Source of the DNA: Thermoproteota archaeon | GTDB taxonomy: Archaea; Asgardarchaeota; Jordiarchaeia; Jordiarchaeales; Freyrarchaeaceae | Length of the DNA stretch: 27,398 bases | Direction of reading: 5' to 3' | Assembly (NCBI GenBank): GCA_029258835.1 | Contig: JAPDJY010000042.1 | Location: 1-27,398, forward strand | Part shown: in pieces, positions 6,933 to 24,828 of the stretch | Layout: each line of letters begins with the position of its first letter | How positions within the stretch are numbered: position 1 is the stretch's first letter | The notes under the pieces: model-generated | The model's input: only the letters and a program-made list of their open reading frames with translations | What the model was told of the DNA's origin: nothing | Databases searched by the model: none | Position numbers and translations under genes: made by a program

Positions 6933-7054
6933 GAGGAAGCCCCTGATGGTCGGCTTCGCAAGCTCTGCTCGCGTTTAACAGGAGGATTCTGCGGTAAAAT
7001 TAAAAAATGTTTTTGCAAAAGTTAAGGGTAAGTGTGCTACGCGAGAGTGTTCTG

Positions 7055-8059
7055 ATGCGTGAGCAATCGCCGGAGCTAAGGTGGAACCCCATACTTAGAG
7101 AATGGGTTATCGTGGCCGCTCGCAGGGAGGAGAGACCTGTTGAAAGCGTTGAGGAGATAGAGAAGTGTCCCTTCTGCCCTGGAAGCCCTGAAGTTGAGGG
7201 GGAGTGGGACGTCTTAAGCTTGCCGAACAAGTATCCTGCCCTCACCCCCAACCCTCCCAGCCCTGTGAGGCACTGGTTTTACAGGACTAAGCCTGCAAGG
7301 GGAGCTTGTGAGGTGATCATTGAGACAAGGGAGCATGAAGGTGATCTTTGCGACCTGTCACTGGAGAGGATGAAGAAGGTCGTCGATCTTTACGCTGAAT
7401 GCTACGAGGAGCTAGGGGGGCTGGGACATGTAAAGTACGTTTTCATCTTTAGAAATAAGGGTGAAGTCATAGGGGTTACACTCCACCACCCTCACTCTCA
7501 GCTTTACGCTCTCCCATTCATCCCTCCTCTAGTAGCCAGAGAGCTGGAGTCGAGTAGGCGCTACTTCAGGAGAAGGAGGGAATGCCTTTTCTGCAGGGTT
7601 TTAAGTGTGGAGAGGAAGGATGGAGTTAGAGTTGTCTACGAGAACAGGGATTTCACCTGTTTCCTACCATTCTACGCTAGGTGGCCCTACGAGGTTCACG
7701 TGTATCCTAAGAGGCACGTCCAGTCGCTTCCAGAGCTGAGGCATGATGAAAGGTTTTCGCTAGCCGACGCCCTAAGAAGAGTTACAGCCACTTATAATAG
7801 CCTTTTCGGCTTCTCCATGCCTTACATAATGGTTATACATCAGAGGCCGACGGATGGCAGGGATTACCGCTACTACCACCTCCACGTTGAGTTTTACCCT
7901 CCATACCGTAGCAGGGACAAGCTTAAGTATCCGGCTGGAATAGAGAGGGGGGCTGGCACATGGACTTACGATGCTACGCCGGAGGAGAAGGCGGAGGAGT
8001 TAAGGAAGGCGGCGGCTCAACTTAACGAGAGAACAGTATCGGTCATGTGTAGAGGATGA
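7055..8059 (+). CDS. galT: Galactose-1-phosphate uridylyltransferase
   Basis: ELRWNP...WVIVA..R..RP, CPFCPG, NKYPAL, active-site HPHSQ, CLFC, HLHVEFYP. Likely start is ATG 7055. Confidence 0.95.
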   Translation: MREQSPELRWNPILREWVIVAARREERPVESVEEIEKCPFCPGSPEVEGEWDVLSLPNKYPALTPNPPSPVRHWFYRTKPARGACEVIIETREHEGDLCDLSLERMKKVVDLYAECYEELGGLGHVKYVFIFRNKGEVIGVTLHHPHSQLYALPFIPPLVARELESSRRYFRRRRECLFCRVLSVERKDGVRVVYENRDFTCFLPFYARWPYEVHVYPKRHVQSLPELRHDERFSLADALRRVTATYNSLFGFSMPYIMVIHQRPTDGRDYRYYHLHVEFYPPYRSRDKLKYPAGIERGAGTWTYDATPEEKAEELRKAAAQLNERTVSVMCRG

Positions 8060-9317: not shown

Positions 9318-10436
9318 TTAATCTAGGATATGGACTGCTGAGGCTTTAAACGCTAGGTAAACTTTCTGTCCTAGGTCTAATCTGAGTTCTTCCACCGAAG
9401 CGCGTGTCGCCACGGCGTCCACCTGGATAGGGCCTGCAGACGCTGTAACCCTTACTAGAGGACCTTGGAAGGAGAGGTTGGCGATGGTGGCTTCTAAGAC
9501 GTTACGTGCGCTCGTCATGGGCTTACTCGTGGCTAAGATTACGTCTTCAGGCTTAACGAGCAAGTTGACTTGCTTTCCGATGGATAGGTCTCGCCTGTAG
9601 GGAGCCGAGATCAACACCCCATTAACGTTTACTTTGGTTACCCCACCTTCAGGGTTAAGGGATTCAACGTGGCCTGACAGGATGTTTCCAAGGTTCATGA
9701 AGGCCGCTACGAACGAGGTTTTAGGCTTCTCAAACACTTCTCTTACTTCCCCGAGCTGCTCTATAGTTCCGTTCCTCATGACGGCCACCTTGTCTGCCAA
9801 GAGACGGGCGTCCATCTGGTCGTGTGTCACGTACACCATGGTTACTCCTAGTTCCTTCTGCACCCTGAGGAGCTCGCTTCTAGCCGTGTTCCTAGTTTGA
9901 GCGTCCAAGTTACTTAGGGGTTCGTCTAGGAGCAAGACGGATGGCTCAACGACTAGTGCTCTGGCTAAGGAAACCCTCTGCTTCTCCCCTCCGCTGAGCG
10001 ATGAAGGCATTCTCCCCTCCAATCCCCTGAGGTTGAGGGCGTCCATCACCCTTTTAACTCTCCTTCTGGCTTCGTCCCCTTTAATCCCGCGAGCTCTAAG
10101 ACCGTAGGAGACGTTTTCGGCAACGGTCATGTGGGGGAACAGGGAGAAGTCTTGGAAAACCATGCCTATGTTCCTTTTCTCGGGTGGAAGATGGTCTATG
10201 CATTCACCGTTAAGGAACACTCTTCCTTCATCCTGCTTTATCAGCCCCGCAATCACGTTTAGGAGTGTTGTTTTGCCGCATCCGGTTGGGCCGAGGATCA
10301 CGAAGAATTCACCCTCGTCCACTTCGAAGCTTACATTTTTCAGAGCATGGAAGAACCTTCTCCGCCTGAGAAGGGTGTCTGTAAGGGAGGATGGGAGGGG
10401 AAACGACTTACTGATAGAGTCAACCCTAAGAGACAT
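9318..10436 (-). CDS. wtpC: Tungstate/molybdate ABC transporter ATP-binding subunit with C-terminal TOBE domains
   Basis: Walker A GPTGCGKT, signature LSGGEKQRV, Walker B LLLDEP, H-loop VTHD, TOBE-type SARNVL...FKASAVH; operonic with wtpAB. Confidence 0.85.
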   Translation of the reverse strand: MSLRVDSISKSFPLPSSLTDTLLRRRRFFHALKNVSFEVDEGEFFVILGPTGCGKTTLLNVIAGLIKQDEGRVFLNGECIDHLPPEKRNIGMVFQDFSLFPHMTVAENVSYGLRARGIKGDEARRRVKRVMDALNLRGLEGRMPSSLSGGEKQRVSLARALVVEPSVLLLDEPLSNLDAQTRNTARSELLRVQKELGVTMVYVTHDQMDARLLADKVAVMRNGTIEQLGEVREVFEKPKTSFVAAFMNLGNILSGHVESLNPEGGVTKVNVNGVLISAPYRRDLSIGKQVNLLVKPEDVILATSKPMTSARNVLEATIANLSFQGPLVRVTASAGPIQVDAVATRASVEELRLDLGQKVYLAFKASAVHILD

Positions 10437-10447
10437 GCTTCCTCCTC

Positions 10448-11362
10448 CTACTTTTCCACGAAGAACCTTACAGCCATTAAAACAGTGAAGGCTACCATTA
10501 AGAGTACTACGGCTGCAGCTATGCTCTGATAGATTCCTCCAGCCCAGAACTTCCAGTATATAGCCGTTGCCAGCGTGTAGCTTTGACCTGGAATGTTACT
10601 GGAGACCATTATTGTGGCGCCGAACTCCCCCATCGCTCTAGCCCACATCATGGCCCACCCTGCCACCAAACCCCTAGCCGACATGGGGAGGGTGACCGAG
10701 TAGAAGGCTCTGAAGGGTGAAGCACCCAAACTTCTAGCGGTTAACTCCATGCTTTCAGGCACCGCTTCAAATGATGCGATGGCTGTCCGCGCGAAGAACG
10801 GGAAGGAGACGAACGTCTGAGCCAGTATTATCCCCCGCCAAGTGAATATTATATCCCAGCCGTTCCGAGCTAGGATGGAGCCTAGAGGAGTGTTTGGCCC
10901 AAGAAAGAGGATGAGGCTTATCCCTGCAACTGTTGGTGGAAGCACCATTGGAAGCTCTATGAGAGTCTTTAACGTTTCCTTCCCCGGGAAGTTGTAGCGT
11001 GCCATGACGTATGCTAGGGGGAGACCGAAGCAAACACCTATGGCGCTCGATATGGCTGTTGTCACGAGGCTCACTCTTATGGCGCTCACTATCACTTCGT
11101 CTTGGAACGCTAAGAGGACTGGGTGTCCCATGTAGCCTTGAAGCTCCGTCCATACCGCTCTAACATCCTGGCTTGCAAATAGGTTGTAGAGGCGTACTAG
11201 CCTTCCCGGGTCAGCGTATGACGGGTTGAAGGTGGAGTAGACTAGGGCTCCAAGCGGGGAAACGAGGAACCCGAATAGGAAGGATAATCCTAGGAGGAAT
11301 GCGAGCAACGTGAACGGCGAAACTCCGCCAAGAAACATTTTACTTTTTCTAACGGCTTCCAC
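10448..11362 (-). CDS. wtpB: Tungstate/molybdate ABC transporter permease
   Basis: FPGK...LIELPMVLPPTVAG, EAA-like ELTARSLGAS, WARAMGEFGAT are ModB/WtpB motifs. Confidence 0.85.
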   Translation of the reverse strand: MEAVRKSKMFLGGVSPFTLLAFLLGLSFLFGFLVSPLGALVYSTFNPSYADPGRLVRLYNLFASQDVRAVWTELQGYMGHPVLLAFQDEVIVSAIRVSLVTTAISSAIGVCFGLPLAYVMARYNFPGKETLKTLIELPMVLPPTVAGISLILFLGPNTPLGSILARNGWDIIFTWRGIILAQTFVSFPFFARTAIASFEAVPESMELTARSLGASPFRAFYSVTLPMSARGLVAGWAMMWARAMGEFGATIMVSSNIPGQSYTLATAIYWKFWAGGIYQSIAAAVVLLMVAFTVLMAVRFFVEK

Positions 11363-11375
11363 GCCTTAACACCTC

Positions 11376-12431
11376 CTACGCACTACATACTTCTCTTATC
11401 TGAGGAGGTGCAGCGTTAACCTCGCCTTTAAGCATGGGAGGAGAAACCACAGGCTGCCCATTACCCTCTATGATAGACAACCCATCGGTTAGGACGAACT
11501 GAAGGAACGTGACGGCCCAGTAGTAGTTTTCAGCGGTGTTTGGTATGGAGACAGCGTACGATATGGATGAACCACGGTAGGTTTTCCCGCTTTCAGTTGT
11601 GATCGTGAAGCGGGAGTACCACTGGTTATACTTCTCTGATGGGTCGCCGAGGCTCACGTTCTTGGGGAGCCGTATGTAGTCTAGCCCGAACTGCTCTGCT
11701 AGTGAAAGGTATGTCCAGCCTGCGTCGAGCTGACCGGTCTGCAGGGCGACCATGAGGTCGAACTCCTTCTCCGACACGACCATGTTACCTGGCTTAGCAC
11801 GGTATAACGTGTTGATCAGTCCAGACTCAGGGTAGCCGGGAAACTCGTCCTTGTGTTCAGGGTAGTATGTGTCGCATATGTTAAATACGATTAATGTTCT
11901 GTATCCGCACGGGTCATTGTCGGGGTTTGCTCTCCCCCACCTCTTCACCTGGCTTGGATCCGCCAGCTTCCAGTACCAGTTTTTCTCGTCGAGCCCAGCA
12001 GGGTTCCCCGGGGCTAGGGCTAGGACTATTTCGTTCCTAGCGAAGATAACCCACCAGTCACAGTACTTCCTTAAAGAGTTTGGAGCGTAGCTTCCCGCGA
12101 GCTCATTTTCTATCACCTTATAGTCGGAGACGAAGATCAGGTCGCATCGTTCTCCAGCCTTCACGAGTCGGGCGCATGCTAGGGAGCCGTGTGCTGAAAC
12201 GTGCACGTTGACGTATGGATACTTGGCTTTAAATGAGTCAGCAAGCTGAGTCATTATCTTTGTTAGGCTACCAGCGCAGAGTACGTCTATATCGGTTTGT
12301 TCTTGAAGGCTCCCCCAGATGGATGATTCTTGGACGTAGAAGCCGTAGGATCCTCCGAGAATTAGGATTGACAGTATGAGTAGCAGAGCTATGGCGGATT
12401 TTAACTCCGACCCTAACATTTCTACTCCCAC
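11376..12431 (-). CDS. wtpA: Tungstate/molybdate ABC transporter substrate-binding protein (WtpA family)
   Basis: N-terminal TM anchor; AGSL, GS..CAR, SDY, NDPCGYRT, E-x-E, WTYLSLA are WtpA-type ligand motifs. Start may instead be ATG 12419. Confidence 0.85.
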   Translation of the reverse strand: MGVEMLGSELKSAIALLLILSILILGGSYGFYVQESSIWGSLQEQTDIDVLCAGSLTKIMTQLADSFKAKYPYVNVHVSAHGSLACARLVKAGERCDLIFVSDYKVIENELAGSYAPNSLRKYCDWWVIFARNEIVLALAPGNPAGLDEKNWYWKLADPSQVKRWGRANPDNDPCGYRTLIVFNICDTYYPEHKDEFPGYPESGLINTLYRAKPGNMVVSEKEFDLMVALQTGQLDAGWTYLSLAEQFGLDYIRLPKNVSLGDPSEKYNQWYSRFTITTESGKTYRGSSISYAVSIPNTAENYYWAVTFLQFVLTDGLSIIEGNGQPVVSPPMLKGEVNAAPPQIREVCSA

Positions 12432-12539: not shown

Positions 12540-14432
12540 TCAGAGTTCGTGTACTCTTTCTTCTTCGATTTTTTCGAGTAGTTTTATGAGGGCTTCGCAT
12601 GACTGCCTTCTGAGGCGGCATAGGAGGGTTAGCTCGTGGGCTTTCAGGATGTCAGACCTGGTTATGATCCCCAGTAGCTTTGACGGGTCTCCCCTGTCAA
12701 CCACCGGAAGCCTCCCAACATCATGCTCAACCATCTTATCAAGCGCCTGCTTAACAGTCTCATCAGGATACGCCACGATCAGATTCCTGGTTGCGATGTC
12801 TCTTACCCTGTATTCCTCTTTCCCCTCTTCGACCGCCCTGATCACGTCTCTAAAAGTAACTATTCCAAATAGTTTCTTGTCGTTGGTGACCACGGGATAC
12901 CCTGTGTGCCCTGTCTTCTCTATGAGTTCCAACACTTGGAAAACGTACATGTCGGGGCTTACCGTAGAGACGTCTGTACGCATTATTTCCCCAACTTTCA
13001 AGTAGTCGAGGATGTCCTTTCTTACCTCAAGGGATACGTCTATTCCTTTCCTGAAGAGGCTTATGGTGTACATGCTTTCCTTCATGAAAAGGCGGCTTAT
13101 GAAGTAGCTTGTAACGCAGGCTGCTGTTAATGGGATAAGCATTATGTAGTTTCTCGTCATCTCTGTGACCATTATAATGCCTGTTAGAGGCGCCCTGCAC
13201 GCTGAGGCCAGCATTGCAGCCATCCCAACGACGGCATAGAGGGTTGAGTCGGATACTAACGAGGGAGCAATGGCGTTTAGTATTAGTCCGAATGCCCCGC
13301 CGAACATGGCTCCGATGAACATGGATGGTATGAACACTCCTCCACTCCCTCCGCTGCCGAGTGTTATGCCGCAGGTGATTATTTTCAGGATTCCTATGAG
13401 GAGGAGCATTTCAACGGCTATTCTCCCCGAGAATGCATTTTTAATAACCCATATACCTTCGCCTCCGACATGCGGGAGGAAGTATATTATAAGGCCTACG
13501 AGGGCGCCGCCCAGAACCGGCTTCAAGTAGCCGGATAGGTTTATGCGCATGAATATATCGTCTATCGTGTAGAACCCTTTAATCCAGAGGATGCTTAGTA
13601 AGCCTATTATGTTGCCTAGGAGGAAGCAGAGGAGTATTTCATGGTAGTGGTAGATGAATGGGGGTGGCCTAAAGAGGGGGGAGTCGCCTAGTATTACGGT
13701 GCTTACCGTTGTGGCCACAACTGATGATAGAAGCACGGGTATAACGGCTGGAAACTCGAAACCTTGGTAAACTACTTCGAGGCCGAAGAGGGCGCCGCCA
13801 ATTGGGGCATTAAATATAGCGCTGAGGCCGGCCGCAGCACCGCATACGACGAGAAGCTTTTTGTGTTCAGTGTCCAATTTGAACAGTCTTGCAACTATCG
13901 AGGCTAATCCAGCCGAGATTTGCACTATTGGCCCCTCACTCCCCGCACTCCCCCCGGAGGCTAAAGTGATCGATGACGCAAGGGTCGTCGTAAATGGAAC
14001 CCTGCTCCTTATGTCTCCCGTCCCAATGGACACTGCCTCCATAACCTCAGCTACCCCGTCGTGACCCTTCGACTCCGGCGCAAACTTGTACGTCAAAAAG
14101 CCAACCATTAATCCGCCGATTGCTGGCAGCGCAATCACCCAGTAACGGCCGAGTGTCTGAGGGATAAGCATGAAGATGTCGGTGAAGAACTCCACTAGAT
14201 GGCGGAAGACGACTGCGCTGACACCGCCTAGTATGCCAACGATGACGGAGAGGAGGAAGACTGTAAGGCGAAGGCGGAAAATCTCTGATCTAAACATGTT
14301 TCTAAAGGAGCGAAGTCTGGAGTGAAGGAGGGCGAGTTCATTCTTCATTTTCCTAACTACCTGGGTGTGTGGCAACCCTCTTGAAGTGCTGTCTTCTTGT
14401 TTGCTGTCATCGTAGCCACCGCCGGAGCTCAA
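12540..14432 (-). CDS. CLC-family chloride channel/transporter with a C-terminal CBS pair (paralog 1)
   Basis: GSAGSEGP (gating Glu), FNAPIGG..F.LEV, GGSGGVFIP, ESMY, two CBS domains. Confidence 0.95.
   Translation of the reverse strand: MSSGGGYDDSKQEDSTSRGLPHTQVVRKMKNELALLHSRLRSFRNMFRSEIFRLRLTVFLLSVIVGILGGVSAVVFRHLVEFFTDIFMLIPQTLGRYWVIALPAIGGLMVGFLTYKFAPESKGHDGVAEVMEAVSIGTGDIRSRVPFTTTLASSITLASGGSAGSEGPIVQISAGLASIVARLFKLDTEHKKLLVVCGAAAGLSAIFNAPIGGALFGLEVVYQGFEFPAVIPVLLSSVVATTVSTVILGDSPLFRPPPFIYHYHEILLCFLLGNIIGLLSILWIKGFYTIDDIFMRINLSGYLKPVLGGALVGLIIYFLPHVGGEGIWVIKNAFSGRIAVEMLLLIGILKIITCGITLGSGGSGGVFIPSMFIGAMFGGAFGLILNAIAPSLVSDSTLYAVVGMAAMLASACRAPLTGIIMVTEMTRNYIMLIPLTAACVTSYFISRLFMKESMYTISLFRKGIDVSLEVRKDILDYLKVGEIMRTDVSTVSPDMYVFQVLELIEKTGHTGYPVVTNDKKLFGIVTFRDVIRAVEEGKEEYRVRDIATRNLIVAYPDETVKQALDKMVEHDVGRLPVVDRGDPSKLLGIITRSDILKAHELTLLCRLRRQSCEALIKLLEKIEEERVHEL
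12542..12782. repeat. 241-bp perfect direct repeat, copy 1 (3' end of CLC paralog 1)
   Basis: Identical by eye to 14725-14965. Confidence 0.9.
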
Positions 14433-14722: not shown

Positions 14723-16657
14723 CTAGAGTTCGTGTACTCTTTCTTCTTCGATTTTTTCGAGTAGTTTTATGAGGGCTTCGCATGACTGCCTTCTGAGGCG
14801 GCATAGGAGGGTTAGCTCGTGGGCTTTCAGGATGTCAGACCTGGTTATGATCCCCAGTAGCTTTGACGGGTCTCCCCTGTCAACCACCGGAAGCCTCCCA
14901 ACATCATGCTCAACCATCTTATCAAGCGCCTGCTTAACAGTCTCATCAGGATACGCCACGATCAGGTTTTCTGTAGCTATGGTTCCTATCCTTTCTTCTT
15001 CTTTACCTTCTTCTACTGCTGTTATCATGTCGTTAAACGTCACTATTCCTACTAGCTTCCCCTTGTTGACTACTGGGAAGCCTGAATGGTGTGTTCGCTC
15101 TGCAAGTTCCAGCGCTTGGAAGACATACATGTCAGGCGTTATGGTGATAACGTTTTTCTGCATTACTTCTCCCACTCTTATGTAGTCTAACAGGTCCCTC
15201 CTCGATTCGAGGTATATGTCTATTCCCTTCTTGAAGAACCTCATGGTGTATATGCTCTCCTTCATGAAGATCCTGCTGACGATGTAGCTTGAGACGCAGG
15301 CAGCCATCAGGGGAAGTATCAGGTGGTAGTTGCCGGTCATTTCCATGACCATCACTATCGCAGTTAGGGGGGCGCGGGCTGACGCTGCGAAGCACGCTGC
15401 CATTCCAACCAAGGCGTATGCCATCGGCTCGAAGCCAATGTAAGGGTGTAATAGTGAGAGATACGGTTGCAGGAATGGGAAAAGCGAGTTCAGGGTCATT
15501 TTGAAGTATAATTTAGTTAGTGGTAGAGTGAATGCTAGGGGGCCTGCAGAGGACTCGAAGAGCACCCAGCTGAGGGATAGGCCGTAGGCTCCGCCGAACA
15601 TTGCCCCTATGAAGAGGGAGGGCGAGTACACCCCCCCGCTGCCTCCGCTGCCGAGGGTGAGGGACGTGGCAAGCATTTTAAGGAACGCTAGGGCAAGGAG
15701 AAGGAGGAGAGGAAACCTTCCTGCAAAAGCGTCCTCCATTACGGAGTATCCGCCACCTAAGATTTGGGGGAAACCAACTGCTATTGCGCCCACTAGGAGG
15801 CCACCGATGGCCGGTTTTGCGTAGGGTGTTACGTTAAGCCTGTCAAAAATTCCTTCGACAAGGTAGAAGTGCTTCACCCAAATGACGCTGGCAGCTCCGA
15901 GTAGGAGTCCAAGCACGAGGAAGAAGAGGAGTTCCCACGAGTTTGAGAGAGTAAAGGATGGGAGCTCAACTATGGGTTCATTACCCATTATGATCCTGCT
16001 CACGGCTGTTGCTATGACAGAGGATAGCACGACTGGTACCACGGCTACCGCTTCTATTCCGCCGTAGACGACCTCTAGGGCAAACAGGACTCCTCCTATG
16101 GGAGCGTTGAATATTGCGCTTATACCTGCTGCGACGCCGCAGACAACTAGGAGCTTCCTGTGCTCGCTGTCAAGCTTGAATGATTTGGCGATCACCGATG
16201 CCAGCCCGGCGGAGATCTGAGCGATTGGACCTTCGCTGCCGGCGCTCCCCCCCGACCCGATGGTTACTCCTGAAGCTAAGGTTTTTACTATTGGAACGCG
16301 GGCCCTGATTTCTCCTCCCTTAAGGGCTACGGCTTCCATTATCTCTGGCACGCCGTGGCCTTTAGCTTCCCTTGCAAACCTGAAGACTAGGAGGCCGGCT
16401 ATGAGCCCCCCAGCGGCGGGCATGAGAACTATGAATGCTGAGCCAAGGCAGTCCGGGAGGTATGTGAAGAGGTCTTCGAGGACGCTGGTTAAATGTCTGA
16501 ATGCTACGGCGCTGAGGCCTCCAATCACGCCTACAGCAGCTGAAAGGAGGATTATAAGGAGCCTAAGCTGTGATGGTCGCGATATGAAAGTCTTTACCTT
16601 CCGCCTCCTCCCTTCCCTACTTTTTCTAATGCGGTTTGCCAGCTTAGCGGTGTACAA
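14723..16657 (-). CDS. CLC-family chloride channel/transporter with a C-terminal CBS pair (paralog 2)
   Basis: GHGVPE, GSAGSEGP, FNAPIGGVLFALEV, GGSGGVYSP, ESIY, CBS pair. Confidence 0.95.
   Translation of the reverse strand: MYTAKLANRIRKSREGRRRKVKTFISRPSQLRLLIILLSAAVGVIGGLSAVAFRHLTSVLEDLFTYLPDCLGSAFIVLMPAAGGLIAGLLVFRFAREAKGHGVPEIMEAVALKGGEIRARVPIVKTLASGVTIGSGGSAGSEGPIAQISAGLASVIAKSFKLDSEHRKLLVVCGVAAGISAIFNAPIGGVLFALEVVYGGIEAVAVVPVVLSSVIATAVSRIIMGNEPIVELPSFTLSNSWELLFFLVLGLLLGAASVIWVKHFYLVEGIFDRLNVTPYAKPAIGGLLVGAIAVGFPQILGGGYSVMEDAFAGRFPLLLLLALAFLKMLATSLTLGSGGSGGVYSPSLFIGAMFGGAYGLSLSWVLFESSAGPLAFTLPLTKLYFKMTLNSLFPFLQPYLSLLHPYIGFEPMAYALVGMAACFAASARAPLTAIVMVMEMTGNYHLILPLMAACVSSYIVSRIFMKESIYTMRFFKKGIDIYLESRRDLLDYIRVGEVMQKNVITITPDMYVFQALELAERTHHSGFPVVNKGKLVGIVTFNDMITAVEEGKEEERIGTIATENLIVAYPDETVKQALDKMVEHDVGRLPVVDRGDPSKLLGIITRSDILKAHELTLLCRLRRQSCEALIKLLEKIEEERVHEL
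14725..14965. repeat. 241-bp perfect direct repeat, copy 2 (3' end of CLC paralog 2)
   Basis: Identical by eye to 12542-12782; offset 2183 bp. Confidence 0.9.
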
Positions 16658-17023: not shown

Positions 17024-18205
17024 GTGAGAGAAGTAAAATGGAGGCTTGGAGGTGTGAGGTTGCTGATGTTTACTCCCGGCCCGACCGAGGTTCCTTCAAG
17101 GGTTTTACTGGCTATGGCCAGGAGGATCCAGAACCCGGATCTTGACGAGGAATTTTACGATTTCTATGAGGAGCTGTGTGGAGACTTGAAACATATTATG
17201 CAGACTAGAAGCGACGTGATCATTCATTCCGGTGAGGCTATAATAGGGCTTGAGGGGGCGGTGCTTAGCTTAGTGGAGCCCGGTGAGAAGGTTTTGACGA
17301 TGACGTCTGGGGTTTACGGGGATGGGTTCATAAGGTTCGTGGAGGCGTACGGAGGAGTACCCGTCGAGGTTAGAGCAGGATATGACGAGGTGGTTAGTCC
17401 CGAGGACGTGGAGAGGACCCTTGAGAGGGAGAAAGATGTGAGGGTGGCAACGCTCGTCCACTGTGAAACGCCTAGTGGAACGCTTAACCCATTAAAGGAG
17501 ATCGGTGAAGTCTGCGAGAGCCATGGGGTAGTTTTGATAGTGGACGCGGTGAGCAGCGTTGGAGGAGTGCCCGTCGAGGTCGACAAGTGGGGTGTCGACG
17601 TTTGCATATTGGGTTCGCAGAAGTGTTTGAGTGCTCCACCCGGATTAGGAATAGTTTCTGTTAGTGGTAAGGCATGGGAGAAGATGGAGGAGCGTAAGGA
17701 GAAGGTTAAAGAGTTCTACCTGAACTTTTTGACTTGGAAGGAATGGTGGCTTGAAAAGAGAGAGTTCCCTTACACCCACTCGGTCTCCCTCATCTATGCT
17801 TTAAAGGAGGCATGTAGGATGCTGCTCGAGGAGGGGTTAGATAACGTTTTCAGGAGGCATGAGAGGGTGGCTAAGGCTACTAGGGAAGCTGTGAAGGCTA
17901 TGGGGCTCGAACTCTTCCCCAGGGAGGAGGAATATTGCTCCGCAACCGTTACAGCAGTTAAAATTCCAAGAGGGGTAAAGGATGAGGAGTTAAGGGAGCA
18001 CATTATGAGAAAGTATGGGGTTATGATCGCTGGTAGCTGGGGGAAAATTGCAGGAAAGGTTTTCAGGCTTGGACACATGGGCTACAATGCCCAGCCAAGT
18101 AAGGCTTTGCAAGCATTGTTCGCACTTTCGGAGACGCTGCGCGACCTTGGATTTCCGTCTAGGACGGAGGAGGCACTCGACGCAGCGAAAAGCGTGCTTT
18201 ACTAG
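17024..18205 (+). CDS. Class V aminotransferase (serine-pyruvate/alanine-glyoxylate family; pyridoxamine-pyruvate transaminase-like)
   Basis: FTPGPT, VHCETPSG, VDAVSS, GSQKC (Schiff-base Lys), FRLGHMG. True start is probably near 17060-17066. Confidence 0.9.
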   Translation: MREVKWRLGGVRLLMFTPGPTEVPSRVLLAMARRIQNPDLDEEFYDFYEELCGDLKHIMQTRSDVIIHSGEAIIGLEGAVLSLVEPGEKVLTMTSGVYGDGFIRFVEAYGGVPVEVRAGYDEVVSPEDVERTLEREKDVRVATLVHCETPSGTLNPLKEIGEVCESHGVVLIVDAVSSVGGVPVEVDKWGVDVCILGSQKCLSAPPGLGIVSVSGKAWEKMEERKEKVKEFYLNFLTWKEWWLEKREFPYTHSVSLIYALKEACRMLLEEGLDNVFRRHERVAKATREAVKAMGLELFPREEEYCSATVTAVKIPRGVKDEELREHIMRKYGVMIAGSWGKIAGKVFRLGHMGYNAQPSKALQALFALSETLRDLGFPSRTEEALDAAKSVLY

Positions 18206-18239: not shown

Positions 18240-19166
18240 CTAGGTGTGACGTTCGTCCTCTCCTTTCCCTTCAAAGTAGGGCTTCAGGTTCAGGTATGTT
18301 ACGGTGTGGTTTGGAGAAGTTTCAGCCAGCCTGTCTAAGAGTTCTATGATCCTTTGTGGTTTACTGAGCGGGATCCCTGCTGCTTTCCTGTGTCCTCCGC
18401 CTCCCAGGGACTCCGCTATTTCCCTTGCATCCGTGCTGCTGCGCTCGTGAACCCTTATGGATGCTCTAAGCGAGCCGGTGTCGACATCCCTGTAAACCAA
18501 CGCTACGGTGTCGCATCCTTTACTTAGCAGCTTGTAGGCTATGTCCTTGGCTAGGTAGTAGGGGGTTACGTCCACCTCGTTTACGAGGTAGAACTTGCCC
18601 TCGACGTCGCTAAGCGAGTTAACTACTTCGTTGAGCACGTTATCTATTACCCTTAGTTCTCCTGCCAGCTTCTCGTACTGCTCCCTGAACCATTCGTCAC
18701 CGGTGAATGCTGCCCCCTTCCGGGCGAGGACTTCTGCTAGCCTTCTCCTTCCAGCGTCGTCGCTGTGAAGGAACTTTATGACCCTGTCTAGGGCGAGCGT
18801 TGCCTCGGTGTGCTTGCCAGTGTCGGCGGCTACGGCCATGCTGACAAGTTCATCTATGACGCCCCCCTTAAGCTTTAGGTACTCTGCTACTAGCTTTGCC
18901 GCAGCGGGGGCTGATGGGGAGACCACGTCATCCTCTGTTAACCGTCCCTCCTTCACCAAGTTTTTATAGTTGCTTTCATGATGGTCGATGTTCACCTTGC
19001 AGTTTATAGGTTTAGGTAGGTCCACTACCATGTCAAAGAAGCCTTCAAGCTTGGAGGCATCCTTGGGGTTGTTAACGAAGACTATTTCCGCGTCGGGGTA
19101 CTTAACCAGTATTAGGGCTGCTGAGATTATCCCGTCACAATCTGTTCCGTGGACGGCTACTCTCAC
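18240..19166 (-). CDS. DHH/DHHA1-family phosphoesterase (NrnA-like)
   Basis: H..DCDG, VVD, IDHH, ADTG, SIR, GGGHRKAAG. Confidence 0.9.
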   Translation of the reverse strand: MRVAVHGTDCDGIISAALILVKYPDAEIVFVNNPKDASKLEGFFDMVVDLPKPINCKVNIDHHESNYKNLVKEGRLTEDDVVSPSAPAAAKLVAEYLKLKGGVIDELVSMAVAADTGKHTEATLALDRVIKFLHSDDAGRRRLAEVLARKGAAFTGDEWFREQYEKLAGELRVIDNVLNEVVNSLSDVEGKFYLVNEVDVTPYYLAKDIAYKLLSKGCDTVALVYRDVDTGSLRASIRVHERSSTDAREIAESLGGGGHRKAAGIPLSKPQRIIELLDRLAETSPNHTVTYLNLKPYFEGKGEDERHT

Positions 19167-19178
19167 GTTAAACCACCA

Positions 19179-20357
19179 TTAAGACCCTTCAAAGCAGTAC
19201 CGAACTTCCTGGAAGCTTAACCTTAACTCCTCGACTGCATGCTTAACCTGCGAGGGGGGAGAGCCCTTAATGGTGGATGCTATGAGGGAGGCAGCCGACT
19301 CCATCTCCTCCTCCTTCATGCCTAGCCGTGTGACCTCGCTCACCCCTATTCTCCCAGCTAAGTCTACTATTATGTTTGACTCTTCAAGTCTTAACGCCGC
19401 ATCCTCCCACTTCAGCCCATACCTTTCGCTAAGCACCTCGGTGTCGATTAGTATTTGATGGGAGCGTGTATAGCCTTTCTCAGCGTACATTACGGGTATG
19501 CCTTCGCTGTCTAGCGACTCAGCTAACTTCCTCGCGTTCCTGACAACCTGTCTGGCGTAGCTCCCCCCGAATGCTTCCATTTCCTTCAGGGTTAGTGCTA
19601 GGGCTGCGATACGGGCGTAATGCGCGTTATCAACGGTCACAAACCGAAGTTCTTCCCTAACCTTTCCGAAGACTTCACCATTTCCCAGTATCATTCCCCC
19701 CTGCGACCCGGAGAGCGTTTTATGGGTGCTCCCAAGCATTATGTCGGATCCCTCGGCTAGGGGGTCTTGGAACTCTCCGCCTGCTATGAGCCCCAGGACG
19801 TGTGACGCATCGTATGCGACTATTCCTCCCGTGTCGTGCACTTCCTCGCTTAGTTCCCTTACCGGGTACGGGAAGAGTATTAGGCTCGCTCCTAGCACCA
19901 CTAGGTCCGGCTTAACCCTCCTCACGAGCTCAACCGCTGCTTCGAGGTTTACCGTCATGCTCTCCTTGTCGAATGGAAGGTAGTGGACTTCTATGTTAAG
20001 CCTGCTTGGAGCGTTCTCTTTAACTAGCCCCGGGTACCCTCCGTTTTCTGGTCCGATGCAAGCCATCTTCTTCCCCCTAAACGCCATGAGGAGGGAGAGG
20101 TCTGCAACATGGCCTGAGATGGGGCGTACGTCGGCAAACTTACACTTGAATAGTTTCTTAGCGAGTTTCTCTGCTTCGTTAATTACCTCATCGGTGAACT
20201 TTGTCCCACGGTAGAGCCCGTCAGGTGCAGTGTACCTGTGGGTGAGGTCTGATGAGAGTAGGCTTCTCGCTGCAGGGCTCATAACGTTCTCCGAGGCGAT
20301 AAGATTTAAACACTTGGAACGCCATTCTTCGTGTTTCTTAACGATTTCGCTAACCAT
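19179..20357 (-). CDS. glyA: Serine hydroxymethyltransferase (divergent archaeal type)
   Basis: LNLIASEN, YDASHVLGLIAGG, STHKTLSG (PLP Lys), RIG..EVTRLGM. Confidence 0.85.
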   Translation of the reverse strand: MVSEIVKKHEEWRSKCLNLIASENVMSPAARSLLSSDLTHRYTAPDGLYRGTKFTDEVINEAEKLAKKLFKCKFADVRPISGHVADLSLLMAFRGKKMACIGPENGGYPGLVKENAPSRLNIEVHYLPFDKESMTVNLEAAVELVRRVKPDLVVLGASLILFPYPVRELSEEVHDTGGIVAYDASHVLGLIAGGEFQDPLAEGSDIMLGSTHKTLSGSQGGMILGNGEVFGKVREELRFVTVDNAHYARIAALALTLKEMEAFGGSYARQVVRNARKLAESLDSEGIPVMYAEKGYTRSHQILIDTEVLSERYGLKWEDAALRLEESNIIVDLAGRIGVSEVTRLGMKEEEMESAASLIASTIKGSPPSQVKHAVEELRLSFQEVRYCFEGS

Positions 20358-20371
20358 CGTTAATTAACCTC

Positions 20372-21280
20372 CTACTTCAACGTTAGGAGGAGAAGGAGAA
20401 GCCTGTGAAGCATTATTTCCCTTTCTGATGGCTGGGTGAAGAAGGGGTAAAATGGTTTGATGCCAAAGTATGCTCCGCAGGCTATTATTGCCACCGTTGC
20501 TCCTAGGAAGAAGAGGAGCGAGAAGGCGTAGAAGGGGTTTGATCGCACCTTGCTCCCCTTAACTTCGGTGAACATTATCCTTTTCGTTGCTAAAAGTATG
20601 AGGAATGATGTAAGCGAAGCCGCCGAGAAGACTAGTATTTCAAATGCTGCCTGTCCCTCCACGGAGCTCACCCCGATCCCTGCACCAAAGAGGAAGCCGA
20701 GGACGCCATAGGCTGAGTACTCCTTCCTTGTGAAGAACCTTTTATAGCCATGGTAGTTTTGGAGGATCGTCGTGGAGACGATGAAGCCGACCACCCCTAA
20801 ATATATGAGTTTGTGCCCGAGGACCTCGTCGAAGAAGTACACTAGGAAGTAGACGTTCGCCTGGGGGATGAAAGGGACGGGGATGGAGGGGGGAAGCAGT
20901 GAAGCGTACATGTGCAGCTCGTTTGCCACGTACCTCATGGCGAGGCCGCCGAGGAAGAGGAAAAGGAAAAGGATGAAGGTTATCTCCGCGACTACGCGCA
21001 GCCTCCTAGCCTTCACCGTTTCAGGAGGTTGAAGCATAACTTCTCTGAAGGTCAAGTAGAGGACCGTCGCACCGACGCTTCCCATGAGGAAGAAGCTTAG
21101 GGTTCTACCAGCCGAGAGGATGGCTGAGTAGCACGTGTAGTCTTCTGATGAGGGGACAGGTATTAAGACGTAGCTCCCCCCTAGGACTTCACCTATTACG
21201 GTGAATGCACTCCAGCTTGCTACAAGGGCTGAGAGGTATATTAGAAGGAGGTTTCTTTTTAGAAGCGTGCCTTCCAGCAA
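20372..21280 (-). CDS. Polytopic (about 7 TM) membrane protein with CLN6-like motifs
   Basis: Several hydrophobic segments; YFFDEVLGH..Y and VEGQ motifs; GGTGG RBS before the TTG start. Confidence 0.7.
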   Translation of the reverse strand: MLEGTLLKRNLLLIYLSALVASWSAFTVIGEVLGGSYVLIPVPSSEDYTCYSAILSAGRTLSFFLMGSVGATVLYLTFREVMLQPPETVKARRLRVVAEITFILFLFLFLGGLAMRYVANELHMYASLLPPSIPVPFIPQANVYFLVYFFDEVLGHKLIYLGVVGFIVSTTILQNYHGYKRFFTRKEYSAYGVLGFLFGAGIGVSSVEGQAAFEILVFSAASLTSFLILLATKRIMFTEVKGSKVRSNPFYAFSLLFFLGATVAIIACGAYFGIKPFYPFFTQPSEREIMLHRLLLLLLTLK

Positions 21281-21582
21281 GAAACCACCTCAAGAAAGCA
21301 CTACCTGTTTAAGTGAGGATGCTCTAAAGAAGGTTTCGGTTTGAATGGGCTTTTAAACGGTTAGTTCGGTTCCTGTCCGCGGGGGAAGAGGGTTAAAAAT
21401 GTTCTGAGGGGCGACGTTAGGGAGTTTTAAGATGGAATCCGCAAACTATATTAAACAGTCTGGGGGAGGATGCATAGGCGCAAGTAGCTTATCACGGATT
21501 AACAGCCTTTAACTTTGGTAGCCCTGTGAACGTGTTCGGAGTGTATGACCGAGGGGTTACTGAGGGTTAGGAGGGAAAACGT

Positions 21583-22617
21583 GTGAGGGATCACATGGAG
21601 TTGCTTGTTTACCTCATTCTGCGTTCAAGGAAGGAGGTCACCTTGGACGAGCTCGCAAGGGAGGCAGGGGTTCCCCGCAGGGGGCTTTCTAGAATTCTAA
21701 GATCCCTAGCTAGGAGGGGAGTGGCTGAAAGGGTGGGGGACAAGGTTGTCTTTAAGAGGCAGGATGCAAGGTGCTTACGAGTTCCCTTCGCTGGTGGATG
21801 CTTAGATCTCAGGGTTAGTGTTAATGTTGACTTGTCGGGAGCTGGGGAAGTGGAAGTTTATAAGGGTGATGAGATCTTTGCGGTTCTACCCTACCTTATC
21901 AGTAGCGGGTCGATGGTTGTTGACTTAAGCGGTCTTCTCAGAGTTTATGGGGATGCAGCGAAGGCGAACGGCGACCCCTTCTCTCTTGAGAAGGCGTATG
22001 CTGTGTTTCGGAGGGTAATGGAGGGGAAGGGGGAAGCTGGGAAGGCGGGCCAATGGGAGATAGACGCCGCGCTAGCCGCAATAGTTTTATGTGGAGCGAT
22101 AACCGAGAAGCTGGGCTTAGAATATATTTTTACAACTATAGATAGTGAAAGCATCCCACGGCGAGTTAGGGCTGAGGAGCTGCAGGCTATAGGGGAGAAG
22201 CATGGTGTCGAGTTTAAAATGGGGTACGCGTTCCCGCTAGGTGATGCGAGAGGGATGCTCCTAGTTGATAGGGGAGGGAAAACGTACTTTTTGAAGGAAG
22301 GAGGAGACCTCATCGTTGAAGTGCCAATAGAGGATTTAGGGGAAATGGTTGAGGTGGACTTCACAAGCTTGGTTGAAAGCTACCTTAACTCTGCGGTTAA
22401 GAAGGAATCCGGCTTCTCAGCCGAGAGGGTGGTGGATCACTTCTTCTCCATGCTGGAGAAGAGAGAGAGCGTTGAAAGCTACGCGGAGTATTTGGAGTAT
22501 GAGGAGGAGAAGGAGCTCCTAGAAGCCATGTACAGGATAAGTTTAACTCTTATGCGTCTTAAAGATAAGGATGTTTCGGCTAAGGTCACCTACCCGTGCT
22601 TTTCAGGTGAAAACTAG
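21583..22617 (+). CDS. Winged-HTH protein with an internally duplicated uncharacterised domain
   Basis: VTLDELAREAGVPRRGLSRILRSLARRGVAER is a wHTH pattern; aa ~65-185 aligns with ~214-337 at an offset of 145-146 aa. Confidence 0.75.
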   Translation: MRDHMELLVYLILRSRKEVTLDELAREAGVPRRGLSRILRSLARRGVAERVGDKVVFKRQDARCLRVPFAGGCLDLRVSVNVDLSGAGEVEVYKGDEIFAVLPYLISSGSMVVDLSGLLRVYGDAAKANGDPFSLEKAYAVFRRVMEGKGEAGKAGQWEIDAALAAIVLCGAITEKLGLEYIFTTIDSESIPRRVRAEELQAIGEKHGVEFKMGYAFPLGDARGMLLVDRGGKTYFLKEGGDLIVEVPIEDLGEMVEVDFTSLVESYLNSAVKKESGFSAERVVDHFFSMLEKRESVESYAEYLEYEEEKELLEAMYRISLTLMRLKDKDVSAKVTYPCFSGEN

Positions 22618-23663
22618 CTTGACAGAACCCTTTCAGCCGCTAGTAGGCGTCCCTTCCACCTCTTCATGGAATCCAGGAACTCTTTTTTGAGGGCTTCGTA
22701 TTCTTCTTGGGAGGCCTCCTTGAAGAGGCGGTAGTAGGATCTCATCTCATAGAGTGCTGGGTGAAGGTAGCCCAGCCTTTTAACAAGGGAGTTAACCGCT
22801 TGAGTCAGCGCTTCAGCTCCTTCCTCGGGGGTAGCTGCTTTCTCCAACTTAGACCTTAAATTTTCCATTTGAACCTCGACGGATGCAGGTTCCATCATGG
22901 TCGACGGTGCGGCATATATTTTTTTCTTGACGTTGCCGAACAGTTCCGACAGCTTCTCCGAGTAATCCTTTATTGACTGCAGAGTGTTAACCAGGCATGA
23001 AACCAGTTCGCCTAGCCTTACCACCTCTTGAGACTGGTTTTCCAAGTTTTCAAGGACTTGCTTAAAGTCGCTAATTGAATTCTCTAATAGGCGAACCTCA
23101 TCCACAAGAGTGTTGATTTCCTTAATGGTTGAGGCGGCTGCCAGCTCAGACTCTATTTTTTTCATGGCGTCCTTAAGCATACTTAACGCCCTGTCCACGG
23201 ACTCGAACGGGTCAACGGACCTGCCCGCTATGACGGGTGGAGGAGTGGTTTCAACGAGGCTTACTTCGACTTCCGATGGCTGCTTACCCTCAAGAAGCAT
23301 TTCAACCTTCTTAAAGACAAGCTCCTCTTCCCTTCCCAGTACGGTGGCACCATCCTCCAAGACGAACGTCACGTAGAAGTCCCGTCCCAGCTGCCGGAAT
23401 AAGTAGCTGACGCCTCCAAGAGACAACATTATGGAAACGTGATTTTCCTCCACCCCAAGCTCTGATTGAACCCTGTCGACCGCTACCCTTAACCAGTTTG
23501 CAACCATGATGGCCATGTTGGTCTCTTCCTCGTCTTCAAAGCTTGTATCGACAAGTAACCCCGCCTCGCTTAACAGGACAAACCCCTTGAAGGGTCCCTT
23601 AACAAGTTTGCTGAGTTCCTCGTGGACTTCGAAGATCGGGAAAAAGGCCAACTCGACCACCAT
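22614..23663 (-). CDS. Roadblock/longin-like N-terminal domain, Pro-rich linker, long coiled coil and helical C-terminal domain
   Basis: FKGFVLLSEAGLLVDTSF...VDRVQSELG...YVTFVL is roadblock-like; heptad-rich middle region; C-terminal HPALYEMR...RWKGRL. Start ATG 23663 inferred from an upstream TTTTAAG box (the ORF track starts at 23750). Confidence 0.7.
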   Translation of the reverse strand: MVVELAFFPIFEVHEELSKLVKGPFKGFVLLSEAGLLVDTSFEDEEETNMAIMVANWLRVAVDRVQSELGVEENHVSIMLSLGGVSYLFRQLGRDFYVTFVLEDGATVLGREEELVFKKVEMLLEGKQPSEVEVSLVETTPPPVIAGRSVDPFESVDRALSMLKDAMKKIESELAAASTIKEINTLVDEVRLLENSISDFKQVLENLENQSQEVVRLGELVSCLVNTLQSIKDYSEKLSELFGNVKKKIYAAPSTMMEPASVEVQMENLRSKLEKAATPEEGAEALTQAVNSLVKRLGYLHPALYEMRSYYRLFKEASQEEYEALKKEFLDSMKRWKGRLLAAERVLSS

Positions 23664-23766
23664 CGTAAATGTAAACCAAGGATAACTTTCCATCTGGAAG
23701 TTCTTAAAAATTGCGTTCCAGAAGCTAGCTTGAAGCCCAGCTTCACCCACTAACTGATTTAAACGT

Positions 23767-24828
23767 TTACGATTTTAGGTAGAGGTGCTTGGAGATGTAA
23801 AAGAGGGAGATTAGCAGGATCAGGACTCCTGTAACGACTTTCAGGATGGATAAGGTGAACGTGATAGGGTTAAGGTTGGCAAGTAGTATTACGTGGTATA
23901 TTAGGGAGATAGCATAGGTTGAGGCTGTAATGGAGGCGGGAAGCGCCTTGCTGATGGAGGAGCCTTGAGGGGAAAAGGCGATGTAGGCGAGAAGGATGCC
24001 GAGTATGAGGAATGACGCTCCCTCGATTAGTGGCTCTCCTCCGAATAGGGAGGGTGAGAGGACAGGGTAGCCTGAATCTAAGGCGTAGTGGACGAGTGAG
24101 AGGGGGAAGGAGAACTCTGAGATGGCAGCTAGGATCGAGGCTATCGAGCCTGTAACACAGAAAACTTTGACGTCTAAGCTCCACCCCTTCAGGAAGACGG
24201 ATAGGGTTGACAGGAATGCGAGAAGCAGGAAGAAGAGGGAGGAGACAAGCAGCGAGTTTCCGCTTATGGCTGCATACTGCCATCCAGCGTTCAGCCCTAA
24301 GGAGACGCCGCAGCTTGAAGGGGGGGAAAGCTCTACAATCAGGATCATTGCCGAATAGTACGGGTTTTCACCCAGCGAAGTTGGGGAGAGACAGGCTTGG
24401 ATTGATGCCATGGTTCCAACCGATACGGCGGCGTCAAGTCTGGTTAACGAGAGGAGAAGCATGTAGGCTGCACCGGTTAGGAAGGCGAAGACGAGGAATT
24501 TCTCTGCCACCTGCACGTTTACGTACCCTACTGCAAAGTGGAGGAGCAGTAGGCACCCTGTGGTTCCTAGGAGGGCGAGGGCGGCTGCCAGCGCAGGTGA
24601 GAGTATGAGGGGGGAGAGAAGAAATCCCACCGCACCCATCCTTGCAACATAGTAGAGTAGGGTACTCGTCAGGGATGAGAGGAGGCAGAACGATTCGAAA
24701 AGTAGCATAGCGCCAGCTAACCCTACGGCGGCACGCCAATGCTTCCCGACGAGTTGCAAGCCATCTAGCCCCCATTCAAGGGTTAAAGGGTAAACCCGCT
24801 TTCTCAGCTGCCTTGCGGAGGAGCGCAT
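23767..24828 (-). CDS. Hypothetical polytopic membrane protein (start uncertain, probably near 24760)
   Basis: About 9-10 hydrophobic segments; the ORF-track start overlaps the 3' end of the GH57 gene. Confidence 0.7.
   Translation of the reverse strand: MRSSARQLRKRVYPLTLEWGLDGLQLVGKHWRAAVGLAGAMLLFESFCLLSSLTSTLLYYVARMGAVGFLLSPLILSPALAAALALLGTTGCLLLLHFAVGYVNVQVAEKFLVFAFLTGAAYMLLLSLTRLDAAVSVGTMASIQACLSPTSLGENPYYSAMILIVELSPPSSCGVSLGLNAGWQYAAISGNSLLVSSLFFLLLAFLSTLSVFLKGWSLDVKVFCVTGSIASILAAISEFSFPLSLVHYALDSGYPVLSPSLFGGEPLIEGASFLILGILLAYIAFSPQGSSISKALPASITASTYAISLIYHVILLANLNPITFTLSILKVVTGVLILLISLFYISKHLYLKS

Follow-up and report, generated by a model that had tools for sequence, protein, structure and literature searches.

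A very distant archaeal relative of CLN6 that keeps a putative catalytic core in an altered pocket

The DNA analysed here (27,398 nucleotides (nt), hereafter the window) is contig JAPDJY010000042.1, positions 1 to 27,398 of the forward strand, from assembly GCA_029258835.1 of a Thermoproteota archaeon that the GTDB places in the Asgardarchaeota (Jordiarchaeia; Jordiarchaeales; Freyrarchaeaceae). A gene on its minus strand encodes a polytopic membrane protein that resembles CLN6 of the human endoplasmic reticulum (ER); it is followed by glyA and a DHH-type phosphoesterase gene and faces a divergent TrmB-like regulator gene (Table 1). A preliminary description of the sequence had placed a 302-amino-acid (aa) open reading frame (ORF) here. 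This ORF was confirmed, on the minus strand with a TTG start, and every motif quoted for it was found at the residue numbers given; the SNP triplet lies at aa 247-249. In addition, we found 15 orthologues of the window protein (53-98% identity), all in metagenome-assembled genomes (MAGs) of Jordarchaeales or Freyarchaeota. N120, E121, H123, D151, E152, G155, H156, K157 and Y160 are invariant in 15/15 orthologues, as are E208, G209, Q210, S247, P249, Y278, P279, Q283, P284 and S285. With these residues unchanged even at 53% identity, the gene is genuine and selected for. In a wider alignment of 93 family sequences, Y148, E152 and H156 are present in all 93, D151 in 92, E208 in 91 and Q210 in 89.

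Table 1. Coordinates of the CLN6-like gene, its motifs and the adjoining features in the window.
Feature	Coordinates	Strand	Remarks
CLN6-like gene for a membrane protein with seven transmembrane helices (TM) ('type A')	20372..21280	minus	TTG start, 302 aa; Jord-/Freyarchaeia-specific divergent paralogue
TM3 motif GGLAMRYVANELH (aa 111-123)	20912..20950	minus	R116 = human H127 column, N120 = D131 column
TM4 putative catalytic motif YFFDEVLGHKLIY (aa 148-160)	20801..20839	minus	D151/E152/H156/Y160 = human D173/E174/H178/Y182
E208-G-Q (aa 208-210), outer TM5/TM6 turn	20651..20659	minus	E208 = human E227
Outer loop GIKPFYPFFTQPSE (aa 273-286)	20423..20464	minus	Long-form signature YPF..QPSE; part of predicted dimer interface
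Outer beta-hairpin (aa 37-56), strands 37-44 and 49-56	21113..21172	minus	Carries E46; in predicted dimer interface
R59-T-L-S62, start of TM2	21095..21106	minus	Arg and Ser peculiar to the window's clade; column statistics
Spacer to glyA, 14 bp, GAGGTTAATTAACG	20358..20371	minus	Between TAG stop and ATG; Shine-Dalgarno-like GGAGGT
glyA (serine hydroxymethyltransferase)	19179..20357	minus	Pfam SHMT 4.9e-29
DHH/DHHA1 phosphoesterase, 12 bp past glyA	18240..19166	minus	Pfam DHHA1; conserved downstream neighbour, Jordarchaeaceae-type genomes only
TrmB-like helix-turn-helix regulator, divergent	21583..22617	plus	Pfam TrmB 4.5e-08; kept beside CLN6-like gene in same family
Divergent intergenic region, 302 bp	21281..21582		Read from sequence

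The connection to CLN6 was followed through Pfam family PF15156, whose gathering cut-off is 27 bits, with two profiles: A1, made from the 15 orthologues, and A2, made from the wider family. Searching 1.84 billion representative proteins with A1 gave 59 further relatives at E ≤ 1e-3, with 16/60 matches at E ≤ 1e-10. When 62 aligned proteins were scanned individually against Pfam, PF15156 was the sole recurrent family, found in 10/62, and other families occurred in at most two proteins each. The relative P0068 scored 30.2 bits, above the cut-off, and the proteins close to it, P0088-P0091, scored 40-47 bits with E values down to 2.4e-12. This clade belongs to the Asgard archaea: a cluster member is annotated as Promethearchaeota, and P0090 sits among L37e, LSm and A-type ATPase operon genes on an unmistakably archaeal contig. 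With hhalign, A1 aligned to the P0068 clade over 231 columns at a probability of 98.0% and E 2.6e-13, and four motifs matched in collinear order. Among these was the non-membrane loop G.KP.YPF..QPSE, in which GIKPFYPFFTQPSE of the window protein matches GLKPYYPFTYQPSEL of the Promethearchaeota clade. Furthermore, the top-ranked cluster in an independent language-model search was one from Chloroflexota in which 12% of members carry PF15156. Other searches stayed closer to their queries. The homologue search with A2 returned the window's own clade alone, and that with P0068 returned the Pfam-positive clade and no eukaryotes; no canonical eukaryotic CLN6 cluster surfaced in the ESM Atlas language-model search with P0088, and no canonical CLN6 cluster lay near the window protein in the ESM Atlas. 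In the PDB, nothing significant was found by sequence (A1, A2) or by fold, and no CLN6 chain was located. Taken together, these comparisons indicate that the window protein is genuinely, though very distantly, related to CLN6, reached through intermediate proteins.

The function of CLN6 has been described in two preprints of 9 October 2026, in which it is an ER Ca2+-dependent glycerophosphoglycerol (GPG) epimerase that makes S,S-GPG for the synthesis of bis(monoacylglycero)phosphate (BMP), with a cytosolic N-terminus, a cavity toward the lumen and a modelled homodimer (10.64898/2026.10.07.757350; 10.64898/2026.10.07.757477). D173/E174/H178 are modelled as the Ca2+ site, and H178 is proposed to be a phospho-His nucleophile that is displaced when the second primary hydroxyl on that glycerol attacks in turn; D59A, D131A, D173A, E174A, H178A and E227A abolish rescue by human CLN6, the pathogenic human allele H127Y and R62H/C are inactive, and Y182A/Y223A is impaired, E227 and Y223 both being present in the human protein (10.64898/2026.10.07.757350; 10.64898/2026.10.07.757477). 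Neither preprint mentions prokaryotic homologues (10.64898/2026.10.07.757350; 10.64898/2026.10.07.757477), and our literature search found no paper linking CLN6 with Asgard or other archaea or prokaryotes.

A register between the window protein and vertebrate CLN6 was obtained from metagenome contigs. The heptapeptide YDEYLGH, present in P0041 and P0068, was back-translated and the contigs were scanned with it; 73 loci were found, 7 with relatives and 66 by chance. One 'metagenome' contig of 3.5 kb, L156, comes from a vertebrate host and carries two successive CLN6 exons (255-611, minus strand), reading MGASIHLVGDSVNHRL and LLYYYDEYLGHSMW. It carries GASIHLVGDSVNH and, 46 residues past the His of that string, YYYDEYLGHSMW, which reproduces the H127-to-D173 spacing used in the CLN6 preprints. 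The first exon scored 116.6 bits to PF15156 in a gapless alignment at profile positions 71-133, and therefore the profile position equals the human residue number minus 29. Two of the human motifs quoted in the preliminary description match these exons, while its TEGQ, SN and YP..P strings were not verified verbatim; L156 reads GHSMW at the place given there for human as GHCMW. Aligned with the vertebrate exon by MAFFT, YYYDEYLGH pairs with YFFDEVLGH of the window protein, which sets H127 to R116, D131 to N120, D173/E174/H178 to D151/E152/H156 and Y182 to Y160. The hhalign of A2 with the exon gave the same register (E 1.3e-4), yet with a probability of 54% over 30 columns. A different register from hhalign, in which a 7-residue gap would pair H123 with H127, was rejected because MAFFT and the A2 alignment both give R116. 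For the N-terminal part we used L103 (81-898, plus strand of a metagenome contig), a CLN6-family gene with a frameshift near nt 600 that matches PF15156 with 39.9 and 18.3 bits over profile positions 23-251. Asp29 of L103 falls at about profile position 30, that is human D59, and aligns with the hairpin Glu of the Asgard proteins, E46 in the window protein. The pairing of D59/R62 with R59/S62 of the window protein was rejected, since L103 and the Pfam coordinates put these two at about human residues 83 and 86. Thus D151-E152-V-L-G-H156 corresponds to D173-E174-x-x-x-H178 of CLN6, E208-G-Q to the E-G-Q with E227, and Y160 stands four residues past H156 as Y182 does past H178. The earlier suggestion that the intramembrane D/E/H residues form a catalytic or metal site holds for the family by way of D173/E174/H178 as mapped in the preprints.

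We then modelled the window protein with AlphaFold2. A model from the 15 close orthologues was poor (predicted local distance difference test, pLDDT, 65.8) and was replaced by one from the 62-sequence alignment, which reached pLDDT 93.4 and a predicted template-modelling (TM) score, pTM, of 0.89. It has seven long helices (11-32, 57-82, 89-127, 139-176, 185-208, 212-231 and 249-272), in agreement with the earlier estimate of about seven TM, a short helix (284-300) and beta-hairpins at 37-56 and 238-247. The segments rich in Lys and Arg are 1-10, 89-95, 177-186 and 232-248, and from their positions the N-terminus is predicted to be cytoplasmic by the positive-inside rule. E46, R116/N120/H123, D151/E152/H156, E208-G-Q and the YPFF.QPSE loop are all predicted on the opposite, outer face. 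The outer face of a cell is topologically equivalent to the ER lumen. The model thus predicts the arrangement of CLN6, with seven TM, a cytoplasmic N-terminus and an exoplasmic pocket.

The prediction of a homodimer scored 0.81 in three runs, and the highest of three control scores was 0.00. Among solved structures, 20/30 homomers and 1/23 monomers reached the mark used, a calibration that applies only roughly here since we supplied our own alignment. At least 85% of the contacts were shared between runs and the partner pLDDT was at least 79. The predicted interface is symmetric along TM3, with contacts 110-110, 114-114 and 118-118, and therefore the conserved G-x-A/G stretch would lie on the predicted two-fold axis. 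As no solved structure has the fold, this result does not reflect memory of a known complex. The model supports a homodimer, in that it favours pairing without showing it.

Foldseek found no solved structure alike (best E 0.23) and no significant transporter fold in the PDB. Full-length fold matches in the ESM Atlas were to unannotated clusters only: one from Chloroflexota (TM-scores 0.69/0.87), one from Actinomycetota (0.64/0.84) and a third, mainly eukaryotic cluster of Mucoromycota (0.68/0.71; 129 members, 287 aa, no Pfam family). Judged by the predicted fold, the members of this last cluster may be unannotated fungal CLN6-like proteins; according to one preprint, CLN6 is absent from yeast (10.64898/2026.10.07.757350 or 10.64898/2026.10.07.757477).

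The pocket of the window protein differs from that of its relatives. The H127 column holds His in 81/93 sequences and Arg (R116) only in the window's four-member clade; the R59 column holds Asp in 54/93 and, again, Arg only in this clade; and the S62 column is Asp or Glu in 70/93. E121, H123 and K157 are additionally fixed in the clade. A second copy, paralogue B, was found in the same genome (G000 contig 10, L001:1180-2034, plus strand, 284 aa). Its His and Asn are the canonical ones, its motifs read GYGMHFTAN, YYFDEMLGH and TVEGQ, and it matches PF15156 weakly, at 17.4 bits; a six-frame PF15156 search of the genome matched this paralogue only, at 17 bits. Within the window's family and order, most genomes have both paralogue types. 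Because the same genome holds a canonical paralogue and most kin hold both, the window gene appears to be a re-tuned duplicate, and on alignment evidence its product would be a pocket-altered copy of a known kind of enzyme in which the catalytic core is kept. Paralogue B and the short forms of the family (from Chloroflexota and many other lineages) share with the window protein the full-length fold (TM-score 0.84-0.87 when normalised to the short protein), a core of DE..H and EGQ, and about 30% identity over 137 aa, and match PF15156 at 16-30 bits. The short forms differ in being without the E46 hairpin and mostly without the YPF..QPSE loop, and in keeping the canonical His, Asn and Asp..Asp. 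On the 3' side of paralogue B lie a 250-aa ORF and then an ORF that opens with a GxGxxG motif of the flavin adenine dinucleotide (FAD) type, likened by eye to geranylgeranyl-reductase-family proteins.

We read the window protein as a membrane enzyme of the CLN6 superfamily, homodimeric, with seven helices and an active site open to the cell exterior, which would carry out phosphodiester transfer with a substrate or metal stoichiometry unlike those of the human enzyme (probability about 0.6). Catalysis, metal use, substrate class and outward orientation are read here from homology, motif conservation, the predicted fold, topology and dimer, and the distribution of the family. A different substrate or metal stoichiometry is expected because Arg replaces both the H127-column His and a second family-wide Asp. 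In the proposed mechanism, D151/E152 together with E208 and E46 would hold a divalent cation and the substrate phosphate, H156 would attack the phosphorus to give a phospho-histidine intermediate, and a hydroxyl of the same or another polyol would displace the histidine. The outcome would be migration or transfer of a phosphoryl group on a glycerol-phosphodiester-type head group or a soluble diester. The guanidinium groups could stand in for part of the His/Asp/Ca2+ phosphate cradle. In the HKD/phospholipase D (PLD) superfamily, the phosphodiester is likewise attacked by a His, and the covalent intermediate is then resolved by a hydroxyl. This resemblance is mechanistic only; fold and motifs are unrelated, no homology is claimed, and CLN6-type proteins differ in being polytopic membrane proteins with a metal-carboxylate site.

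Several results weigh against this assignment. The window protein has no match at E ≤ 1 in Pfam or at E ≤ 0.1 in NCBIfam, and its 15 orthologues have no PF15156 match even at E ≤ 10. The proposed CLN6-family membership therefore stands as remote homology through a chain of profiles and does not extend to the Pfam CLN6 model itself, whose gathering threshold the window protein fails to reach. In addition, hhalign of A1 with the vertebrate exon gave no match (probability 1%), as expected because the window's clade lost the H127-column His, and the link to CLN6 is transitive for this reason. Within the pocket, the substrate-contacting H127 and D131 are replaced by R116 and N120, Asn being the prokaryotic norm in the D131 column (87/93); Y223 corresponds to V204, and no counterpart of human R62 was found in the alignment of the window protein. 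The counterpart of D59 is probably E46, with L103 as the sole bridge for this pairing. Furthermore, the gene neighbourhoods of the window, Freyarchaeota, Jordarchaeum-type and P0090 contigs gave no lipid-related or functional clue.

One alternative is that the window protein does exactly what CLN6 does, as a Ca2+-dependent glycerophosphoglycerol epimerase interconverting sn-3- and sn-1-linked glycerol in GPG or in the head group of phosphatidylglycerol or archaetidylglycerol. Both proteins have about 300 aa, seven TM, a cytoplasmic N-terminus, an exoplasmic or luminal pocket and a modelled or predicted homodimer, and the motifs G-x-x-x-[H]-x-x-x-[D/N], Y-x-x-D-E-x-x-G-H-x-x-x-Y and E-G-Q are collinear in the two; the core residues D151/E152/H156/E208/Y160, the predicted orientation and the predicted dimeric state are thus shared. 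However, the changes of H127 to R116, of Y223 to V204 and of the family-wide Asp to R59 (at about human residue 83), together with R62 being without a counterpart, make this equivalence improbable, and paralogue B, with its His and Asn intact, is the better candidate for the ancestral activity. The window protein differs from human CLN6 also in that E46, the probable match of D59, stands on an extra beta-hairpin and that the C-terminal YPF..QPSE loop lies outside the Pfam match, and it comes from an archaeon, which lacks an ER and for which neither BMP is known nor a CLN8/CLN5 pathway shown.

Duplicated enzymes often give rise to non-catalytic copies, and the window protein might be one of them: a pseudo-enzyme, a partner of paralogue B or a binder of a phosphorylated ligand. 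The change of two family-conserved pocket residues to Arg in the window's clade only would fit such a role. Against it, neither the nucleophile His nor any of the three carboxylates varies in orthologues down to 53% identity, and E121, H123 and K157 are newly fixed on the same helix faces, which points to a re-tuned and not a decaying pocket. Moreover, the search of genome G038, which is 100% complete, yielded the window type only. We therefore consider loss of catalysis unlikely and keep to the active membrane enzyme proposed above.

The origin of the gene is a separate question. The preliminary description had raised the possibility of an unrecognised eukaryotic signature protein and had itself named a wide bacterial distribution as the refuting result. 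In GTDB species genomes, a search for YF[YF]DExL[GS]H gave 70 confirmed loci. The bacterial ones were in Chloroflexota (many), Actinomycetota, Thermodesulfobacteriota, Deferribacterota, Cyanobacteriota/Melainabacteria, Verrucomicrobiota, Zixibacteria, Bacteroidota, Ignavibacteriota, Bdellovibrionota and three phyla of the candidate phyla radiation (CPR), and the archaeal ones in Halobacteria, Woesearchaeota and several Asgard lineages. The family is widespread beyond Asgard archaea and eukaryotes, which is the refuting result that the description had named, and the signature-protein claim is not supported. Among the Asgard archaea, 48/301 species genomes and 27/70 genera have a member, and with the PF15156 model only four Asgard species genomes reach E ≤ 1e-3 and only one passes the cut-off. 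The family member of Baldrarchaeum yapensis (L038) is identical in protein sequence to L101 from an independent metagenome contig. One Promethearchaeota MAG has at least four long-form paralogues, P0033, P0050, P0054 and P0069 (locus tags ACTSVI_03940, _14930, _17390 and _17395), two of them adjacent, and the family has therefore expanded in some Asgard lineages.

Trees split the family, weakly (Shimodaira-Hasegawa-like approximate likelihood-ratio test, SH-aLRT, 59), into a long form (265-320 aa) that has both the hairpin Glu (the E46 column is acidic in 43/44 long-form proteins) and the YPF..QPSE loop, and a short form of about 240 aa that is mostly bacterial. All named long-form members are from Asgard archaea (Jord-, Frey-, Hod-, Loki-, Sigyn- and Promethearchaeota). 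The Promethearchaeota clade with P0068, P0088-P0091 and P0101, annotated as hypothetical proteins, falls in the same half of the tree as the window protein and shares with it TM1, the hairpin Glu, the core motifs and the YPF..QPSE loop; it differs in keeping the His of the H127 column, the Asp of the R59 column and the Tyr of the Y223 column, at about 24% identity. When the vertebrate fragment and L103 were added, both joined the bacterial short forms (SH-aLRT 86), in a tree where the fragment, the sole true eukaryotic sequence, is 82 aa long and fills 24% of the columns and where both added branches are long. The best identity of the fragment was 34%, to the Chloroflexota-type L138. An approximately unbiased (AU) test did not reject a grouping of vertebrate CLN6 with the Asgard long form (delta log-likelihood 3.6, p 0.38). 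A phylogeny had been suggested as a check on Asgard-eukaryote sisterhood: the free tree speaks against it, the AU test keeps it, and the sisterhood is neither supported nor rejected.

Descent of eukaryotic CLN6 from the window gene by a vertical Asgard line, which would make it a genuine signature protein after all, draws on the restriction of named long-form members (about 265-320 aa) to Asgard archaea, on the Promethearchaeota clade holding the top PF15156 scores among full-length prokaryotic proteins and on the AU result. We nevertheless give it little credence. The family is common in bacteria and non-Asgard archaea, just 48/301 Asgard genomes carry it, the free tree and the best identity (L138) place the vertebrate fragment with bacterial short forms, and the window's clade is not the one nearest to CLN6. 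In addition, L103 equals the best Asgard clade in likeness to CLN6 by PF15156 scores and is probably bacterial, because the product of the neighbouring gene is a lipoprotein with a lipobox and a GFSEGG hydrolase elbow; the reading of L103 as an intron-bearing gene of eukaryotic type was rejected, as this neighbour favours a bacterial contig with a frameshift. At the H127 column L103 has Tyr, the same change as in the human allele H127Y, which is inactive. The finding should not be taken as evidence that CLN6 arose in Asgard archaea. Finally, an unrelated seven-TM transporter or channel with convergent motifs, which the absence of a direct Pfam match and the proneness of polytopic membrane proteins to spurious profile matches might suggest, is very unlikely in view of four collinear motifs that include a non-membrane loop (hhalign E 2.6e-13), of PF15156 in 10/62 relatives against at most two for any other family and of the PDB search, which matched no transporter fold.

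The surroundings of the gene were read from the window and from related contigs. A/T-rich, TATA-like boxes lie upstream of the TTG, with TTTAAAA at a distance of about 70 nt and TTTAATATA at about 170 nt, and GAGGTGG stands just before the start. The 14 bp reported between the CLN6-like gene and glyA were confirmed, as TAG, then GAGGTTAATTAACG, then ATG. In the sister genus (L002, L009) and on the Jordarchaeum-type contig L090, the divergent TrmB-like gene, the CLN6-like gene, the DHHA1 gene and a convergent class-V aminotransferase gene follow one another in that sequence with no intervening glyA, and because of this absence glyA is taken as a lineage-specific insertion. Freyarchaeota contigs have none of these neighbours; a luciferase-like monooxygenase gene and small ORFs of no known kind are found instead. 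Co-transcription with glyA and the DHH gene, as put forward earlier, is made plausible by the tight spacing, but given the lineage-specific insertion of glyA and the lack of these neighbours in Freyarchaeota the operon reading is at most partly supported. Plausibly, glyA is tied to the adjacent class-V aminotransferase gene (17024-18205, plus strand) and not to the membrane protein; both encode pyridoxal-phosphate (PLP) enzymes of Ser/Gly metabolism.

Elsewhere in the window, CLC chloride-channel genes with CBS pairs lie in tandem at 12540-14432 and 14723-16657 (both minus; Pfam 3.5e-99 and 1.7e-103), and a local duplication is suspected because the syntenic Jordarchaeum-type contig has one CLC gene only. 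A 378-aa coiled-coil protein (22614-23750, minus) and a 353-aa polytopic membrane protein (23767-24828, minus) had no family match; counterparts of similar size occupy the same position on the Jordarchaeum-type contig. The genes for a galactokinase-like GHMP protein (5700-6932, minus) and a galactose-1-phosphate uridylyltransferase (7007-8059, plus), enzymes of the Leloir pathway, are divergent, and 9318-12431 encodes an ABC transporter that has TOBE domains.

CLN6 was given a biochemical function as late as October 2026, and its mapped catalytic core is kept by a large family of prokaryotic proteins that carry no annotation. New here are the anchoring to vertebrate exons, the mapping of D59 to E46, the test for a homodimer, and the placing of the eukaryotic sequence by a tree and an AU test. 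The prokaryotic members are compact, possibly thermostable candidates for a first structure of the fold and for tests of the phospho-histidine mechanism. The natural change of H127 to Arg in the window's clade is a ready-made specificity experiment, since H127Y is pathogenic and inactive in human CLN6. The family also raises the question of what an enzyme that inverts the stereochemistry of a glycerol phosphodiester does in organisms without BMP, and the same question arises for archaea, whose lipids use the opposite glycerol-phosphate enantiomer. As a long shot, the prokaryotic CLN6-like enzymes, the two Asgard paralogues among them, might shift a phosphodiester between the primary hydroxyls of glycerol at the outer membrane face and so interconvert sn-3 and sn-1 glycerol phosphate, the stereochemistry by which bacterial and eukaryotic lipids differ from archaeal ones. 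If this were true, an ancient editing of head groups in prokaryotes would be the source of the eukaryotic S,S-BMP pathway, the Asgard enzyme could blur the 'lipid divide' between bacteria and eukaryotes on one side and archaea on the other, and the Arg-substituted copy in the window would be specialised for an archaeal head group.

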